The notes beneath the pieces are model-generated. The model was not told where the DNA came from, searched no databases, and worked only from the letters and a program-made list of their open reading frames with translations. A stretch of DNA of 64,000 nt. It comes from a virus. Position numbers and translations under genes: made by a program. The stretch covers positions 1 to 64,000 of IMG/VR virus record IMGVR_UViG_3300022555_000024, one strand, 5' to 3'. Within the stretch, counting starts at the first letter, position 1, and the number at the start of each line of letters is the position of its first letter. Positions 1,933-50,722 of this stretch are shown here, in pieces.

Positions 1933-2295
1933 ATGACAATCAACGAGACACGACAGCCGTATGAATTTTTAGTACGGTGGAATGATGGTATACTTACAGG
2001 TTCACACGTAAAATTCAAAACAGTGCTTGACAGAGACGGAGTAGTCTTTCAAGAAACCGAAGGCCCTGCTTTACCAGTTGGAACTGAAGGGTTTCCATTG
2101 CTGGATATTATTAATTTGACGCTTCAAGAGGCATTGCAGTCTATTGACGTTCTGACGAACGAACTTTCCGCATCAAAGGCAGAGACGGAATCAGCAATAG
2201 CTACAATAGCAGAAAAAGACAGTGATTTGGAAGCAAAGCAGTTTGATCTTGATACTGCACTTGAGGAAATCACAAGGCTCACAGTCACAGAATAA
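1933..2295 (+). CDS. Hypothetical protein, possibly tail-fibre associated (C-terminal coiled coil)
   Basis: ORF directly after the fibre gene, AAGG upstream; acidic heptad-like C-terminus. Confidence 0.6.
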   Translation: MTINETRQPYEFLVRWNDGILTGSHVKFKTVLDRDGVVFQETEGPALPVGTEGFPLLDIINLTLQEALQSIDVLTNELSASKAETESAIATIAEKDSDLEAKQFDLDTALEEITRLTVTE

Positions 2296-2405
2296 GCGCA
2301 CACATGAGTACATAACCAAAACCATTGCCCGTAAAGCGTTGACTGGCGTATGAGTTCGTATCCTAACCTGAGTCTTACGGACTGACTCCCCGACAAGATC
2401 AGTTG

Positions 2406-2446
2406 AAACCTTGGCATTAATAGGTTGGTGTCAGGGTTTTTTATTT
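2406..2446 (+). terminator. Rho-independent terminator
   Basis: AAACCTTGGCATTAA/TTGGTGTCAGGGTTT stem (with GU pairs) followed by a T run. Confidence 0.6.
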
Positions 2447-2496
2447 GCCTTATTATTTATACATTGTTAAGAACGTAAAACTTTAAACCCAAAAAT

Positions 2497-2622
2497 ATGG
2501 CATACGTAGAGATAGCGGCAATCACAAAAGAGCTTAAGATAGACCGGATAGCGGTGTACTACCACATCGGAAAAAAGAGAATCCAGAAGGTAAGCGCAAA
2601 GTCAGGGCTTTCTACATTTTAA
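2497..2622 (+). CDS. Small basic ORF, possible truncated HTH/excisionase-like protein (41 aa)
   Basis: MAYVEIAAITKELKIDRIAVYYHIGKKRIQKVSAKSGLSTF*; HTH-like pattern by eye only. Confidence 0.3.
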   Translation: MAYVEIAAITKELKIDRIAVYYHIGKKRIQKVSAKSGLSTF

Positions 2623-2769
2623 TATCTCTTTCTGTTGCTTTACGTCTAATATCATATATCCCACTAATTTGGGATATTTTATAAGCTTAAATAATAGATC
2701 TGCTTGTTTTTTATTTCTAACTACTGGACAGTCTTTTCTTTATAATACAAAGCTATAAATTACATTCCT

Positions 2770-2777
2770 TATAAATA
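2770..2777 (+). promoter_or_regulatory. T4-type late promoter TATAAATA
   Basis: Exact gp55 consensus upstream of gp13. Confidence 0.8.
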
Positions 2778-2811
2778 AGTAAAATAATCAAAAAATTACT
2801 TATTTATTACA

Positions 2812-3591
2812 ATGGCAACAACTTACGGAACTTTAACAAATATACATTTACCTCAGAATATAATGGAACTTAAGGACTATGTTAAACGTCGCTTAGGGCA
2901 TCCTGTTGTAAAAATAGACGTCACTGATGAGCAGTTCTATGATAGAATAGCAGATACTCTTCAATTTTATCAAGATTTCCACTACAATGGATCACTTAGA
3001 ACATACTCAAAGTGGCAGGTAACTCCTCAAGATATTGTTAATAGATATCTAACAACTAGCCCTAATGTTTTGGGTGTAACGAGAATTCTTGATCCTAGAA
3101 GCGCTCAGAGTTCTATGTTTACTTCTGTAGAATTTTGGCTTCGTTCTCAAATAAACTTCTTTGACTTCTTTGGTTCTACTCAAGCATCGTTCGTAGATTA
3201 TTTTCTTACTCAGCAGAGAATAGCAGATATGGATATGTTATTTAGATCAAATCCTAATATTCTATTTAGTAGAAATGATCACAGACTTTTTATAGAATTT
3301 GACTGGCAAAATGATATTAGAGTTGGGGATTGGATTGTTGCAGAAGTACACACATTTCTCGATCCACAAACTAGTAAAGATGTACTTAATGAAAGATTTA
3401 TACTTGCTCACGTTACAGCTTCTGTTAAGATGCAATGGGGAGAGAATTTGAAGAAATTCGGGGGAGTCCCTCTTCCCGGTGGCCTTACTGTCAATGGCGA
3501 CAAAATTTGGCAAGAAGGTAAAGATGAAAAAGAAACAATAGAAAAAGAATATATGTCTATGATTTTACCACCTTTAGATTTGATTGGATAA
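2812..3591 (+). CDS. gp13: Neck protein gp13
   Basis: ELKDYVKRRLGHPVVKIDVT, QWGENLKKFGGVPLPGGLTVNG motifs; position in the block. Confidence 0.93.
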   Translation: MATTYGTLTNIHLPQNIMELKDYVKRRLGHPVVKIDVTDEQFYDRIADTLQFYQDFHYNGSLRTYSKWQVTPQDIVNRYLTTSPNVLGVTRILDPRSAQSSMFTSVEFWLRSQINFFDFFGSTQASFVDYFLTQQRIADMDMLFRSNPNILFSRNDHRLFIEFDWQNDIRVGDWIVAEVHTFLDPQTSKDVLNERFILAHVTASVKMQWGENLKKFGGVPLPGGLTVNGDKIWQEGKDEKETIEKEYMSMILPPLDLIG

Positions 3592-3592
3592 C

Positions 3593-4645
3593 ATGTTAAG
3601 TTTCAAATCATTTATTATAGAAGGGGTTTATCTCTTAGAGGACCGACTTGATTATTTAGAAAAGAAATATCCAATTATTTCTATAAAACATGATCATTTA
3701 GCAAAATTAGAGAAAGCAAAAGATATTATACAATATTTTGCAGAAAATGCCGACCCTACATTTTCCAAGAAGTATACAGATTGGATTATTATACAATATA
3801 AAAATGGGAACGTTAGGCAAGAAGATGCACCAAGAATTCATGCGACGCTTAAGAATTTTGACAAATTTAAATCAAAATTAAAAAATAAAGATATTAATTT
3901 TTACAAACATTTAGATGAATTAGAACAACAATTGGAATCTCATCTTGGAACAAAATCTAATAGAGAGGTTGTGAAAGAAATAAAACACAAAGGAGCAGAC
4001 AAAGTTCTAGATAAAAATGATATCGTTGTTTATAAAATAAAAAATAAGGAAGCTGCCTGTTATTATGGTAAGGGAACAAAATGGTGCACAGCAGCAGATA
4101 ATTACAATAGATTTGATAGTTATAACAATAAAGGTCCGTTGTATATAATATTCGCTAAAGATATGCATGGAAAATTAGCTAAATACCAATTTCATTTTGA
4201 AACAGACTCTTATATGGATGAAAATGATAGATCTATCAACTTAGAAGATTTAGTAAAGAAAAATCCTGAACTTAAAGAAGTTCCTAATTGGCAAGGTAAA
4301 TCTTTAATATTGACATCCGATAAAAATTTTGGTAAATATTTTAATGTATTGTTAAAAAGTACACCACGTTTAACTTTAGCCGATCCAAGAACTACACAAG
4401 AATTTGTTAATAATGCATTAAATTCTCCAGATTATATGGTTAAGTTTCAGGCTCTAGATTATGATAATATATCTAAACAACAACTGTCAATGGCATTAAA
4501 TGATCCACATGAATCTGTTAGATATATGGCTATAGTTCATCCAAATATTACTAAGGCTCTTCTTTTAAGAGCTTCAGAAGATTATGATAAAACAAATAAA
4601 GATACTGCTAAAAAAAGATTATCTTCAGGAGATTTCAAACAATAA
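3593..4645 (+). CDS. Putative capsid-internal protein with a KWCT domain and C-terminal HEAT-like repeats
   Basis: Probable start MLSFKSFIIE (CTS-like); GTKWCTA motif; ALNSPDYMVK/ALNDPHESVR repeats. Confidence 0.6.
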   Translation: MLSFKSFIIEGVYLLEDRLDYLEKKYPIISIKHDHLAKLEKAKDIIQYFAENADPTFSKKYTDWIIIQYKNGNVRQEDAPRIHATLKNFDKFKSKLKNKDINFYKHLDELEQQLESHLGTKSNREVVKEIKHKGADKVLDKNDIVVYKIKNKEAACYYGKGTKWCTAADNYNRFDSYNNKGPLYIIFAKDMHGKLAKYQFHFETDSYMDENDRSINLEDLVKKNPELKEVPNWQGKSLILTSDKNFGKYFNVLLKSTPRLTLADPRTTQEFVNNALNSPDYMVKFQALDYDNISKQQLSMALNDPHESVRYMAIVHPNITKALLLRASEDYDKTNKDTAKKRLSSGDFKQ

Positions 4646-45989: not shown

Positions 45990-47462
45990 ATGGGTTTCTT
46001 TTATACAAATTCACAATATCATAGAGGTTCTATTTATGTTCGTGGTTACGACACAAATGGAAAATATGTTTCTAAAAAAGTTGATTACCAGCCAACAATA
46101 TTTGTACCTACAAATAAAATAGAAGAATCAGATGGTTGGAGAACTATTTACGGAGATCCAGTAAAGCCCGTAAAAATGCGTTCTGTATTTGATATGAAAG
46201 AATATGTGAATGGATTAGATAATATTTGTGGACTTATAGATACTCGTGATCAAAAATATGCATTTATCAACGACATCATCCCTGGTGAAGTTGAACATAA
46301 AATGGATCTCATAAAGACTTTAATATTTGATATAGAAATAGAAACAGAAGGTGGTCATGAGGATATTAAAAAATTAGTTTGGGGAAATCCTCATCAGAAA
46401 ATAAATGCAATCTGTGTGTGGATAAATAATATAGAATATGTTTCTTGGGGACTCGGTAAGTTTGAAGCAGAAAGAGAAGATCATGAATATAGAGAATTTA
46501 CCGATGAATTAGAAATGTTGCATGACTTTTTTAAGTTTGTTCAACACGAAAAACCGGATATCATATCGGGATGGAATATTAATGGATTTGATATTCCATA
46601 TTTATTCAATAGAGTTTCATTTTTAGGTAAAAGAGAATATGCAAATTTAATGTCTCCTTGGAGACATGCACCAGAATTAGTAGGAAATGAAATTCAACAG
46701 TATACTATTCCAGGAATTGCTATTTTAGATTATATGGAGACATATAAGAAATTTAATATGACGCCTAGAGAATCATATTCTCTTAATAATATTTGTTATG
46801 AAGAACTTGGAGAGAAAAAACTAGACTATTCCGAATTCGATTCTCTCATGGACCTTTATAAAAAAGATTGGAAAACTTTTATTAGATACAATTTACGTGA
46901 TACAGAATTGGTTAAAAAACTAGATGATAAACTTAAATATTTTGATTTAGTAGTTACATATGCATACCTCGGAAAAGTAAATTACGAGGATGTATTTGGC
47001 ACTGTGAAATATTGGGATATTAAGATATATAATCATCTTTACAAAAAGAAAATAGCAATTCCACCAAAACCTAAAGATACAAGAAAAGAAGAATATCCAG
47101 GTGGTTTTGTAAAAGATCCAATCGTAGGTATGCATAAATGGGTATCAACGTTTGATTTGAATTCGCTATATCCATCTGTACTTATTCAGTGGAACATTTC
47201 TCCAGAAACTTTAATTAATGGAAAACATTCTCAGGTTACTGTAGATTCTATATTAAATAAAGAGTATGATAATTCAGAATTGCTTAAAGAAGATATTACT
47301 TTAGCAGCAAACGGGGTATATTTTTCTAAGAAAAAACAAGGGTTTATTCCAGAAATTCTAGAAGAACTTTACGAGACTAGAACAAAATATAAAAAGAAGA
47401 TGCTTGCAGGTGAAGCTAAATTGCAGAAAGTACTAGAAGAAATAAAAAGAAGAAAATTATAA
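45990..47462 (+). CDS. gp43: Family B DNA polymerase, N-terminal subunit (gp43A)
   Basis: FDIEIE, SGWNINGFDIPY, YNLRD, FDLNSLYPS. Confidence 0.95.
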   Translation: MGFFYTNSQYHRGSIYVRGYDTNGKYVSKKVDYQPTIFVPTNKIEESDGWRTIYGDPVKPVKMRSVFDMKEYVNGLDNICGLIDTRDQKYAFINDIIPGEVEHKMDLIKTLIFDIEIETEGGHEDIKKLVWGNPHQKINAICVWINNIEYVSWGLGKFEAEREDHEYREFTDELEMLHDFFKFVQHEKPDIISGWNINGFDIPYLFNRVSFLGKREYANLMSPWRHAPELVGNEIQQYTIPGIAILDYMETYKKFNMTPRESYSLNNICYEELGEKKLDYSEFDSLMDLYKKDWKTFIRYNLRDTELVKKLDDKLKYFDLVVTYAYLGKVNYEDVFGTVKYWDIKIYNHLYKKKIAIPPKPKDTRKEEYPGGFVKDPIVGMHKWVSTFDLNSLYPSVLIQWNISPETLINGKHSQVTVDSILNKEYDNSELLKEDITLAANGVYFSKKKQGFIPEILEELYETRTKYKKKMLAGEAKLQKVLEEIKRRKL

Positions 47463-48559
47463 TGAAAGCAATAGAGGAGATGAGTGATGAGGAACTTATT
47501 TCATATAAAAAGAATTTGGAAGATGAAATAGGAGCTAATAATTCTACTCAAAATGCGTTAAAGGTAGCTTTGAATATGTTATACGGAGCCCTAGCTAATA
47601 GATATTTTAGGTATTTTGATGTAAGAATGGCTTCTGCAGTAACTTTAACAGGTCAGAGTGTTGTTAAATGGTGCGAAAAGTCTACCAATGAATATATGAA
47701 TAAGGTTTTAAAGACAGATAAAGACTATATTATTGCCATTGATACTGATTCAGTGTTTATAACAATGGAGGATATGATTAATAAATATTTTCCAGATGTA
47801 AATGATACTTCTACTGTTATATCAACAATGCAAAAAATAACAGAAAAGAAAATACTTCCTAATATGGCAAAATCATTTGCCGAGCTTTATGAATATTTGA
47901 ATTGTTATAAACCAAGAATGGTTATCAAATCAGAATCTTTGGCAAGTGCAGGTATATTTTTATGTAGAAAGAAATATGCTCTTATGGTTCATTCTAACGA
48001 AGGAATTGTTTATGCAAAACCAAAAATGAAAGTTAAAGGAATAGAGATAATAAGATCATCTACTCCCGAAATATGTAGATCTTCTCTTAAAGAAGCCGTT
48101 CAAATAATATTTGATTCTGGTGAAAAAGCTGTTCAAGAACATATTAAACAATTTAAGAATAAATTTATATCTAGCGGAGTTAATTCTACATCTTTTCCTA
48201 GAGGAATTAACGAACTTAAAAAATGGATAGATATAAATGGAAATCTTAACAAAGGATGCCCAATACATGTAAGAGGAGCTTTAAACTTCAATAGATATGT
48301 AGATAAATTAGGATTAGATAAGAAGTATGAGCATATTCATGAAGGCGATAAAATAAGATTTACATATCTTAAGATGCCTAATCCTTTAAATTCAAATGTA
48401 ATAGGGTTTGTTTCTTTAATGCCAAAAGAATTTGAGTTAGAGGAGTATATAGATTATGAATTGCAGTTTCAAAAGGCGTTTGTTGCACCTATTTCTAATA
48501 TTCTTGATGCAGTAGGATGGCAAGTAAAACCAAGTGTGAATTTGATAGATTTATTTTAA
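47462..48559 (+). CDS. gp43: Family B DNA polymerase, C-terminal subunit (gp43B)
   Basis: KVALNMLYG, IDTDS, KGIEIIRSSTP, CPIHVRGAL; clamp-binding-like NLIDLF end. Confidence 0.95.
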   Translation: MKAIEEMSDEELISYKKNLEDEIGANNSTQNALKVALNMLYGALANRYFRYFDVRMASAVTLTGQSVVKWCEKSTNEYMNKVLKTDKDYIIAIDTDSVFITMEDMINKYFPDVNDTSTVISTMQKITEKKILPNMAKSFAELYEYLNCYKPRMVIKSESLASAGIFLCRKKYALMVHSNEGIVYAKPKMKVKGIEIIRSSTPEICRSSLKEAVQIIFDSGEKAVQEHIKQFKNKFISSGVNSTSFPRGINELKKWIDINGNLNKGCPIHVRGALNFNRYVDKLGLDKKYEHIHEGDKIRFTYLKMPNPLNSNVIGFVSLMPKEFELEEYIDYELQFQKAFVAPISNILDAVGWQVKPSVNLIDLF

Positions 48560-49044: not shown

Positions 49045-49410
49045 GGGGGTGACGGGATTTTGCCAGTCAAATAGTTAAATAGGAGTGCAGTTCGAGTTTC
49101 AGCATGGATGGACTCGTTAAAGAAGTCTATGTAAACAATAAATGCAGACACTTTCGAGTATCGCATGGCTGCTTGATCTTAACAGACAAACACCAAATTT
49201 GATAACTATATAGACGCTGAGTAGTTATCATCTAAAAATATTAGCAGTCGTCTTTGGTCCGAAGTTTCATCTCACCAATGTACTAAATTTGAAACTAGGT
49301 ATATCTCTTCCTGTTTGTGGGAAGTCAATTACCGAACAATAACACAAACATGACTGTAACACTTTTATTTTTCGTTTGGTTGTACGAGGGTTCGACTCCC
49401 TCCACTTCCA
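49045..49410 (+). ncRNA. ssrA: tmRNA; tag (A)ADTFEYRMAA*
   Basis: Acceptor GGGGGTG/CACTTCC-A with G3.U; T-arm GAGGG-TTCGACT-CCCTC; ATAAAT precedes resume codon GCA at 49144; stop at 49174-49176. Confidence 0.92.
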
Positions 49411-49416
49411 CAAAAT

Positions 49417-49561
49417 GGGGTAACACAGGTTAGAAATAATTAGCGAAAAACAGAACTGGTTATAACTCTACAATGATCGCAACATTGGAGGACTTGATGA
49501 ACAGAGAATGTTCTTTAGTAATACCGTGATTATTTATTGGGTTCGAACCCCATTTACTCCA
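49417..49561 (+). ncRNA. 145-nt tRNA/tmRNA-like RNA (mini tmRNA-like)
   Basis: Acceptor GGGGTAA/TTACTCC-A with G3.U; T-arm TGGG-TTCGAAC-CCCA; no D-stem; helix AAATAATTA/TGATTATTT closes an ~85-nt insert. Confidence 0.75.
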
Positions 49562-49606
49562 CAAATTAATATATAACATCCTTCCTAATAATACAAATAC
49601 TACACA

Positions 49607-50722
49607 ATGGCAAAAGCAGAAGTAACAAAAAATAGCAAAGCATATGATATCCTAAAAAGAATGAAGAAGACGTCTTCTGTTGAAGAATCGTCAGTTTTTT
49701 CAGATTCTGATCTTTATATGATAAAGGAATCCATCCCAACTCCTATCCCAGTAATAAATTTAGCACTATCTGGTAAATTTTTTGAAGGAGGAATAACACG
49801 AGGTTTAACTGTATTTGCGGGACTGTCAAAAACCTTTAAGACTAACATTTGCCTTCTTTGTTTAAAGGCATATATGGACGCACATGAAGACGCGATAGGA
49901 ATGCTTTATGATTCAGAGTTCTCATTTACCCCAGAGTATTTAGCTTCATTTGGGATAGATATTAACAGAATATTCATAACACCTATAGTTGATATAGACA
50001 AACTTAAGAACGATATTATAAGTCAGGTAGATTCCATTAATAATGGAGAACACATCTTCATTTTAATAGATAGTATTGGAAATTTGGCATCTCTTAAAGA
50101 AGTATCTGATGCACAGGATGGAAAATCAACTCAAGATATGTCCCGCGCAAAAATGTTAAAAAGCTTTTTTAGAATGATAACGCCAAGAGTAAATCTGAAA
50201 AATATTCCACTTTTTGTTGTTAATCACATTTATATGACTCAGGAAATCTATAGCAAAGCAGTAATAAGTGGTGGAACAGGAGTACTCCTATCTGCAAATT
50301 CTGCACTCATCATGTCTCGTCGTAAGAATGATAATAAGGAAGAAGCTGGGTTCGATTTTATGATTAAAGCAGAGAAATCTAGATTTATAAAAGAAGGAAT
50401 TAAATTTCCAATTACAATACCTGAAGGTGGACAGATTAAGAAATATTCAGGCCTGTTTGATCTTGCATTAGAGACTGGCTTTTTAATGAAAGAAGGAATG
50501 ATGTATGCTGTCCCTGAATTACCAGAATTTAAAAAGGCATGGAAAAAAGATATAGAGGATTCTGAAGAATTCTGGACAAATATTTTTGAGAATACTACAT
50601 TTGTTAAAACTATAGAGGAAGGACTTAAAGTATCTGTAGATCAATCAGAATTATTTAAAATAGGTGCTAATGTTAGTGATATCTCCAATACAGTTGAAGA
50701 TTTCAAAGAGTTTGAAGAATAA
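49607..50722 (+). CDS. uvsX: RecA-like recombinase UvsX
   Basis: INLALSG, GLSKTFKT, YDSEF, IDSIGNLAS, DMSRAK, ISGGTG. Confidence 0.95.
   Translation: MAKAEVTKNSKAYDILKRMKKTSSVEESSVFSDSDLYMIKESIPTPIPVINLALSGKFFEGGITRGLTVFAGLSKTFKTNICLLCLKAYMDAHEDAIGMLYDSEFSFTPEYLASFGIDINRIFITPIVDIDKLKNDIISQVDSINNGEHIFILIDSIGNLASLKEVSDAQDGKSTQDMSRAKMLKSFFRMITPRVNLKNIPLFVVNHIYMTQEIYSKAVISGGTGVLLSANSALIMSRRKNDNKEEAGFDFMIKAEKSRFIKEGIKFPITIPEGGQIKKYSGLFDLALETGFLMKEGMMYAVPELPEFKKAWKKDIEDSEEFWTNIFENTTFVKTIEEGLKVSVDQSELFKIGANVSDISNTVEDFKEFEE

Follow-up and report, generated by a model that had tools for sequence, protein, structure and literature searches.

An IMG/VR virus record encodes, six nucleotides downstream of a full-length tmRNA, a second and much smaller RNA of 145 nt (positions 49417-49561, + strand), which, judged from its sequence, is a real feature with a tmRNA-type tRNA-like domain (TLD). 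Our preferred interpretation, held with slightly less than even confidence, is that this mini-tmRNA (hereafter the mini) would be a tmRNA paralogue cut down to the TLD and an 84-nt insert that is not a pseudoknot, that is, an alanine-chargeable, tag-less mimic of tmRNA, co-transcribed with it, released by RNase P, completed with CCA, and acting on SmpB or on stalled ribosomes. Little work has been done on TLD-only tmRNAs, a curiosity for which the literature offers one phage example (DS6A), yet they proved common in the viral contigs that we examined. The locus amounts to a natural experiment, in which one phage has both a complete tmRNA and, 6 nt away, a mini, presumably on one transcript, and it sets against each other the ideas that a mini merely replaces a lost tmRNA and that it merely poisons trans-translation.

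The locus and its full-length tmRNA

The window analysed here is the first 64 kb of a linear, 112,339-bp IMG/VR virus record that is about 62% complete. The locus is housed in the replication module, where a split DNA polymerase (45990-48559) is followed by two small ORFs, the tmRNA, the mini, a UvsX-like recombinase (49607-50722) and a DnaB-like helicase. The coordinates of both RNAs are collected in Table 1; for the tmRNA, ARAGORN reports the range 49045-49411, and direct reading places the discriminator A at 49410. No promoter or terminator consensus was found between the tmRNA, the mini and uvsX, which makes co-transcription of the three plausible. No ORF of at least 40 aa overlaps the mini on either strand, and a search for an SmpB gene (PF01668) found none in the record at its present completeness.

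The 5' third of the phage tmRNA is nearly identical to Chlorobiaceae ssrA. The PK1 region (~49086-49140) is almost identical to that of ssrA genes in Chlorobium and Pelodictyon MAGs (L320-L350, L338:1935-2334), outside it the sequence has diverged, and the phage tag compares with ADDYSYAMAA in Chlorobiaceae. By sequence, the phage tmRNA looks like a host-derived one, taken from Chlorobiaceae. Because of the near-identity in PK1, and because an organism with Chlorobiaceae-type ssrA is present at 160-390x depth in the same lake runs as the phage, the locus points to a green sulfur bacterium (Chlorobiaceae) as the probable host of what is probably a large, T4-like lake phage. CCA is unencoded in both the tmRNA and the mini; as it is also missing from some Chlorobiaceae ssrA genes, CCA addition is plausible in such a host.

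Descriptor and covariance searches single out the tmRNA and the mini

A strict descriptor, requiring the T arm, a fully paired acceptor (7/7) with G1-C, G2-C and G3.U, and A73, has exactly two matches in the whole 112-kb record, the tmRNA and the mini; in 100 random genomes of the same size it yields 0.01 matches per genome. When the interior is shuffled, with 30 registers allowed, 0.36% of the shuffles form a P2-placed helix of 9 bp or longer (p=0.0036).

We also used R2, a covariance model derived from 36 other mini-tmRNAs of phages with the present one left out, and searched both strands of the 64-kb window exhaustively. R2 scored the tmRNA at 33.1 bits (E 2.6e-5) and the mini at 32.0 bits (E 4.7e-5), with the next match at 13.5 bits, and its alignment of the mini uses the same P2 that the first-pass annotation had proposed. 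A second model, R1, was built from an alignment of 23 distinct short minis only and could not span 145 nt; it gave a partial match of just 10.4 bits to the mini, compared with 45-87 bits for its training members. Of the 30 columns that are (near-)invariant among the aligned short minis, 22 are kept by the mini and 25 by the TLD of the phage's genuine tmRNA; the mini retains the GG and UUCGA motifs and A73.

The unconstrained MFE of the mini is -31.7 kcal/mol (z=-1.8 against shuffles). This fold keeps the acceptor, but joins mini positions 20-27 to 40-47 and 56-64 to 110-118. Constraining the acceptor and T arm raises the energy by 1.3 kcal/mol, and with P2 constrained too it stands at -25.8 kcal/mol. 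P2 is not thermodynamically preferred, being 4.6-5.9 kcal/mol worse than competing folds. Between the two models we favour the TLD fold over the MFE fold, because the place of P2 was fixed in advance, whereas the rival helices are post hoc and expected by chance in AU-rich sequence.

Anatomy of the mini

All of the features that had been described on first inspection for a 145-nt element behind the tmRNA are present, whether judged by direct reading, the descriptor or R2. The alanine identity elements G3.U70 and A73 occur in the mini, as had been claimed, and the insert holds just two small hairpins, with no anticodon arm and no detectable pseudoknot, in agreement with the earlier view that the pseudoknot ring is missing. 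The T arm fits the 5-7-5 pattern with a UUCGAnn loop and abuts the acceptor; its U.U is the sole non-canonical pair flagged by R2. In the D-loop analogue, the GG is as far from the acceptor as it is in other members of the mini-tmRNA family, and the family consensus GG..UU.GA is matched as CACAGG-UUAGA, 1 nt shorter than the consensus owing to a single deletion.

Table 1. Features of the phage tmRNA and the adjoining mini-tmRNA in the 64-kb window
Feature	Position	Strand	Basis or remark
Full-length phage tmRNA, tag ADTFEYRMAA*	49045-49410	+	ARAGORN; Rfam RF00023, 104.8 bits
Spacer CAAAAT, 6 nt, from tmRNA discriminator to G1 of the mini	49411-49416	+	Direct reading
Acceptor 5' strand GGGGUAA, with G3 of G3.U	49417-49423	+	7/7 pairing with 49554-49560
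Stemless 10-nt D-loop analogue CACAGGUUAG	49424-49433	+	R2 alignment: one 1-nt deletion after GG
P2-like helix, 5' strand AAAUAAUUA	49434-49442	+	9 bp with 49527-49535; R2 aligns 7 pairs to the family P2
84-nt insert replacing pseudoknots and mRNA-like domain	49443-49526	+	Direct reading, folding
Insert hairpin CAAUG/CAUUG	49471-49487	+	5 bp
Insert hairpin GAACA/UGUUC	49499-49513	+	5 bp
P2-like helix, 3' strand UGAUUAUUU; contains the UGA ending the open GCG frame	49527-49535	+	
Linker A, then T arm: stem UUGGG/CCCAU (closing pair U.U), loop UUCGAAC	49536-49553	+	
Acceptor 3' strand UUACUCC and discriminator A (49561)	49554-49561	+	No encoded CCA; trailer CAAAUU

Several positions that are near-invariant in the family TLD have changed in the mini: C17 is A, an A.G pair is A-U, the GAC linker is shortened (R2 needs a second 1-nt deletion there), and the T stem contains the U.U. 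These deviations make SmpB binding by the mini uncertain.

The mini and the tmRNA share the leader AAU and the trailer ACAAA, which suggests that the mini may have originated in an old tandem duplication of the tmRNA unit. Relative to the adjacent tmRNA, acceptor pairs 5-7 and one pair of the T stem are changed on both strands and still pair; if the two RNAs are paralogues, this argues for selection on the helices. Their 3' regions share 19 of 31 bases in a by-eye comparison, and when the mini was aligned locally with the phage tmRNA, with the tmRNA of the closest relative (L002) and with the spacer following the latter, the score was at noise level, 17 each time. Antisense duplexes between the insert and the tmRNA were no better than those of shuffles.

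Other identities were considered and rejected. The claim that the element is a tmRNA-type TLD and not a tRNA holds up: besides the missing anticodon arm, ARAGORN with introns allowed and thresholds lowered returned nothing credible, and an Rfam search of the mini alone returned no tRNA, tmRNA or mt-tmRNA match at E<=10, so that it scores as neither an ordinary nor an intron-containing tRNA. With a standard one-piece tmRNA (RF00023) the mini shares the TLD layout, the alanine identity elements and genomic adjacency; unlike such a tmRNA, it has no pseudoknots, no recognisable tag frame, no RF00023 match at E<=10 and no ARAGORN tmRNA call, and an 84-nt insert with two hairpins in their stead. Half of a permuted tmRNA is an equally poor description: the Rfam tmRNA_permuted model reaches 15.7 bits across the junction, and the GGGGUAA of the mini pairs with its own 3' end and not with CACUUCC of the tmRNA. 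Nor does the element look like an att-site duplication, since only TCCACAAA (8 nt) is repeated exactly and the mini has its own compensated 5' acceptor strand. Finally, independent per-run assemblies from four lake-metagenome runs span the tmRNA, the mini and uvsX without rearrangement or joint, which argues against an assembly artefact.

The mini belongs to a widespread kind of phage RNA

Pattern scans of IMG/VR recovered minis of 59-76 nt at 34 viral loci, 32 of them with a perfect G3.U acceptor, and minis of 102-123 nt at a further 12 (perfect acceptor in 10/12); minis of 133-137 nt occur in two complete phage genomes. The lengths form a continuum from 59 to 137 nt (L096, L109, L118, L154-L186, L307-L318) in which ARAGORN calls none, and the present mini, at 145 nt, is the longest among those examined. 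All have the same architecture, with a variable insert in the P2 loop, and their inserts have no sequence similarity to that of the present mini. The alignment of the 23 distinct short minis has compensatory changes at 13 of 19 pairs. The Rfam tmRNA cut-off is passed by 36 of 41 other minis; the TLD of the present mini is the weakest of all those examined. As side observations within the family, a subgroup of ~75-nt minis has a conserved, GUAAAAUUAAUUUAGC-like P2 loop, and three mid-size minis share a GAAGCGAcGaAAGGCCCA motif.

TLD-only phage tmRNAs are an established kind. Mycobacterium phage DS6A is listed as having a "TLD only" tmRNA (Hudson, Lau & Williams 2014, PMC4131195), and R1 recovers it at JN698994 28478-28557 with 49.3 bits, so that DS6A and the present mini each match one of the mini-tmRNA models. 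The two are alike in being phage-encoded and in having a G3.U acceptor, a stemless D-analogue, P2 and a T arm, with no tag frame called. DS6A, at about 80 nt, is 'little more than the TLD', whereas the present mini has its long insert, is AT-rich, has no encoded CCA, deviates at near-invariant TLD positions and lies 6 nt behind a complete tmRNA. The novelty of kind that the first-pass annotation had implied does not stand, given this precedent and more than 45 further examples in viral contigs; what is new is the placement beside a full tmRNA, itself apparently derived from Chlorobiaceae, the divergent TLD and the length of the insert.

The co-residence of the two RNAs appears to be unusual. 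Of the other viral records with a mini (46, of which six are estimated to be complete), none has a full tmRNA, their sole RF00023 matches being the minis themselves, and an R1 search near 86 tmRNA-bearing loci found no separate mini. This comparison is suggestive, many of the records compared being fragments; permuted tmRNA genes dominated the output of a pattern scan for tandem tmRNA-mini pairs. Of the other phage minis, most are solitary or lie in tRNA clusters, not behind a tmRNA.

A possible route of action through SmpB and stalled ribosomes

If the mini is a tag-less mimic, it would be transcribed together with the tmRNA, cut by RNase P at its G1, trimmed at the 3' end and completed by CCA addition, and then charged by the host alanyl-tRNA synthetase through G3.U70 and A73. 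With host SmpB and EF-Tu, it could compete with full tmRNAs for SmpB or stalled ribosomes; alternatively, the charged mini might accept the stalled peptide without adding a degradation tag. Both outcomes had been put forward on first inspection, and they find a parallel in what has been published on the one phage precedent: a DS6A-like molecule strongly inhibits tmRNA, perhaps by titrating SmpB (PMC4131195; repeated in PMC11915505, citing Mao et al. 2009). Against such a mimic, a complete tmRNA in the same phage leaves no obvious need for an inhibitor of trans-translation.

Reduction to a TLD is also seen outside phages. CDS-less tmRNAs occur in jakobid mitochondria and, at ~65 bp, in Mallomonadaceae plastids (PMC11915505); like the mini, they are reduced to an alanine-accepting TLD, and they are thought still to act with SmpB. 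The organellar RNA is the sole tmRNA of a reduced organelle genome, whereas the mini is a second copy beside a complete viral tmRNA.

Population variation and the possibility of a decaying duplicate

The strongest competitor to the mimic, which we nonetheless consider unlikely, is a decaying relic: an old tandem tmRNA duplicate that lost its interior and survives as a TLD-like remnant no longer in use. Were this so, the finding would be of minor interest. The shared leader and trailer are what a tandem duplication would give, and the weak TLD, with its U.U in the T stem and its failure to match Rfam where most other minis succeed, would fit decay. The finding of 0 full tmRNAs in 46 other mini-bearing records could likewise mean that the pair is transient.

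Variation within the population bears on this reading from both sides. The locus is present in nine DNA runs from three freshwater lake studies (2016, 2017, 2020), and the contigs of four runs contained no form without the mini. Over 49102-49900, contigs of 2020 differ from the window at two sites only, both inside the mini. That two of two SNPs fall in 145 of 799 nt (p ~0.03, by-hand arithmetic) may be a sign that the mini is less constrained than the sequence around it. Neither SNP breaks a helix: 49524 C>T lies in the insert and is unpaired in every fold model, and 49548 C>T affects the last T-loop base, a variable position, where it yields the family-consensus U.

Homologue searches returned little. 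Searching 50,697 phage records by blastn with the locus and with the mini gave no real match, and exact 17- and 23-mers were absent from viral contigs. A degenerate pattern for the tmRNA tag matched, among viral contigs, only the one relative already known, and it had no match in metagenome contigs; the 28 matches to a mini-specific degenerate pattern in metagenome contigs were all ordinary tRNAs with a chance upstream match. Among 64 uvsX relatives examined, only L002 carries this tmRNA, and none carries the mini. The first-pass annotation had said that a lack of conserved homologues or covariation would count against the element, and at the sequence level that is what we see: no orthologue of the mini was found in the collections searched, and hence there is no covariation for the mini itself.

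The closest relative, L002 (uvsX 72% identical), has a tmRNA with the same tag and an encoded CCA, and no mini at the site, an absence that also fits a relic. Its tmRNA-uvsX gap (1979-3001) is occupied by a hairpin-rich spacer of ~100 nt and a 305-aa ORF (2084-3001), which by eye we take to resemble a GIY-YIG homing endonuclease. The position that follows the tmRNA looks like a hot spot for insertions. In another relative (L003:2977-4620, uvsX 70% identical), on a contig without tmRNA, the recombinase is split into two ORFs (2977-3246 and 3364-4620), which suggests an intron, an intein or a frameshift.

Against the relic stands the preservation of structure. The acceptor is fully paired although three of its pairs differ from the tmRNA on both strands, P2 is intact at a length rarely reached in shuffles, the GG and UUCGA motifs and A73 are kept, the two SNPs leave every helix whole, and the R2 score of the mini is like that of the functional TLD of the phage's own tmRNA.

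A possible processing element or T4 rnaC-like stable RNA

Somewhat less probable than the relic is a role in processing, in which the mini would be punctuation or a stable RNA like T4 rnaC, a substrate for RNase P and 3' trimming with no role in translation. Once cut, it would leave the tmRNA, 6 nt upstream, with a free CCA-less 3' end and detached from the uvsX message. The plausible co-transcription of tmRNA, mini and uvsX would suit such a role, as would the contrast with L002, in which the tmRNA encodes CCA and no mini follows, whereas here CCA is missing and a mini follows (n=2).

T4 offers a partial precedent. Its tRNA cluster ends with tRNA-Arg, rnaD and rnaC at spacings of 1 and 6 nt, so that rnaC (species 1, 139 nt, NC_000866 70908-71046), like the mini, lies a few nucleotides behind the last tRNA-type gene. 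It is similar in size to the mini and has a T arm (CCGGG-UUCGAAU-CCCGG) and an acceptor-like closing helix round a large insert. It differs from the mini in having no G3.U, an imperfect acceptor with two U.U, and no tmRNA-type D-analogue or P2; R1 gives it only 16.8 bits, and the two have no sequence similarity. More generally, a processing signal would have no need of the alanine identity set, a tmRNA-type D-analogue or the P2 geometry, the tmRNA already provides its own RNase P substrate, and most other phage minis do not follow a tmRNA at all.

A possible two-RNA system and the question of a tag

A more elaborate reading, which we regard as doubtful, is that the phage deploys two RNAs on host ribosome rescue: a host-derived tmRNA with an altered tag and a co-transcribed, tag-less mini that enters by the same SmpB, AlaRS and EF-Tu route, together setting the balance between tagging and tag-free release of stalled ribosomes. 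If true, such a system would, for example, spare phage proteins or out-compete the host tmRNA. In its stronger version, the mini would itself be a pseudoknot-free tagging tmRNA.

That the mini is a compact tagging tmRNA strikes us as improbable in its own right. Translation of the insert, as an mRNA-like domain free of pseudoknots, would then start at GCG (49443) and stop at UGA (49527-49529) to give a 28-residue tag, with the short resume frame of the first-pass annotation as an alternative. The frame does stay open from one end of the insert to the other and stops within the 3' strand of P2, and the A at -4 before GCG resembles a tmRNA resume context, in which an upstream A has a role (PMC2481249). 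A comparable arrangement exists in the 134-nt mini of a complete 172-kb phage (L098:8395-8528; L118:1504-1637, - strand), where AUAAAU|GCU, the context of the resume site in the 49045-49410 tmRNA, opens a 12-codon frame that ends at UAA in the P2 3' strand, and in which the two variants differ by a synonymous GGA/GGG change; that RNA may be a very small tag-coding tmRNA. For the present mini, neither of the two resume frames proposed earlier gained support. An open frame of 28 codons is expected by chance at about 0.1 to 1/8 per frame in such AT-rich composition (a rough estimate), the putative tag has no C-terminal hydrophobic degron of the Ala-Ala type, ARAGORN calls no tag, and translation would have to open the one helix by which the TLD is held in one piece.

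Phage tRNAs counter anticodon nucleases, and by analogy the mini might be a decoy target for tRNA- or tmRNA-cleaving nucleases of host defence, but this is highly improbable, as the general tRNA-like shape is all that speaks for it, the anticodon loop, which is the usual target, is missing, and no such system is indicated in the gene neighbourhood.

Other unusual tRNA-like elements

A second odd tRNA-like element occurs in the same record outside the window, at G000:C1:66067-66130 (+), ~570 nt upstream of the record's only tRNA (tRNA-Asp, 66697-66770). Its acceptor is UUUCUUG/CAAGAAA, its D arm GCGU/ACGC and its T arm GCAGG-UUCGAAU-CCUGC, and a 12-nt linker replaces the anticodon arm; it scores 20.8 bits with R2 and is not called by ARAGORN. 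Elsewhere, L107:4449-4603 (also L110) contains two tandem tRNA-like elements of 70-78 nt, 7 nt apart, with G3.U-type acceptors and Rfam tmRNA scores of 24.5 and 29.5 bits, one of which has an anticodon-loop-like CUUAUAAUC. In a distant relative (G017), two tRNAs (L074:449-520 and 1501-1575, - strand) are assigned the anticodons UCA and CUA by ARAGORN, and these suppressor-type tRNAs hint at stop-codon recoding.
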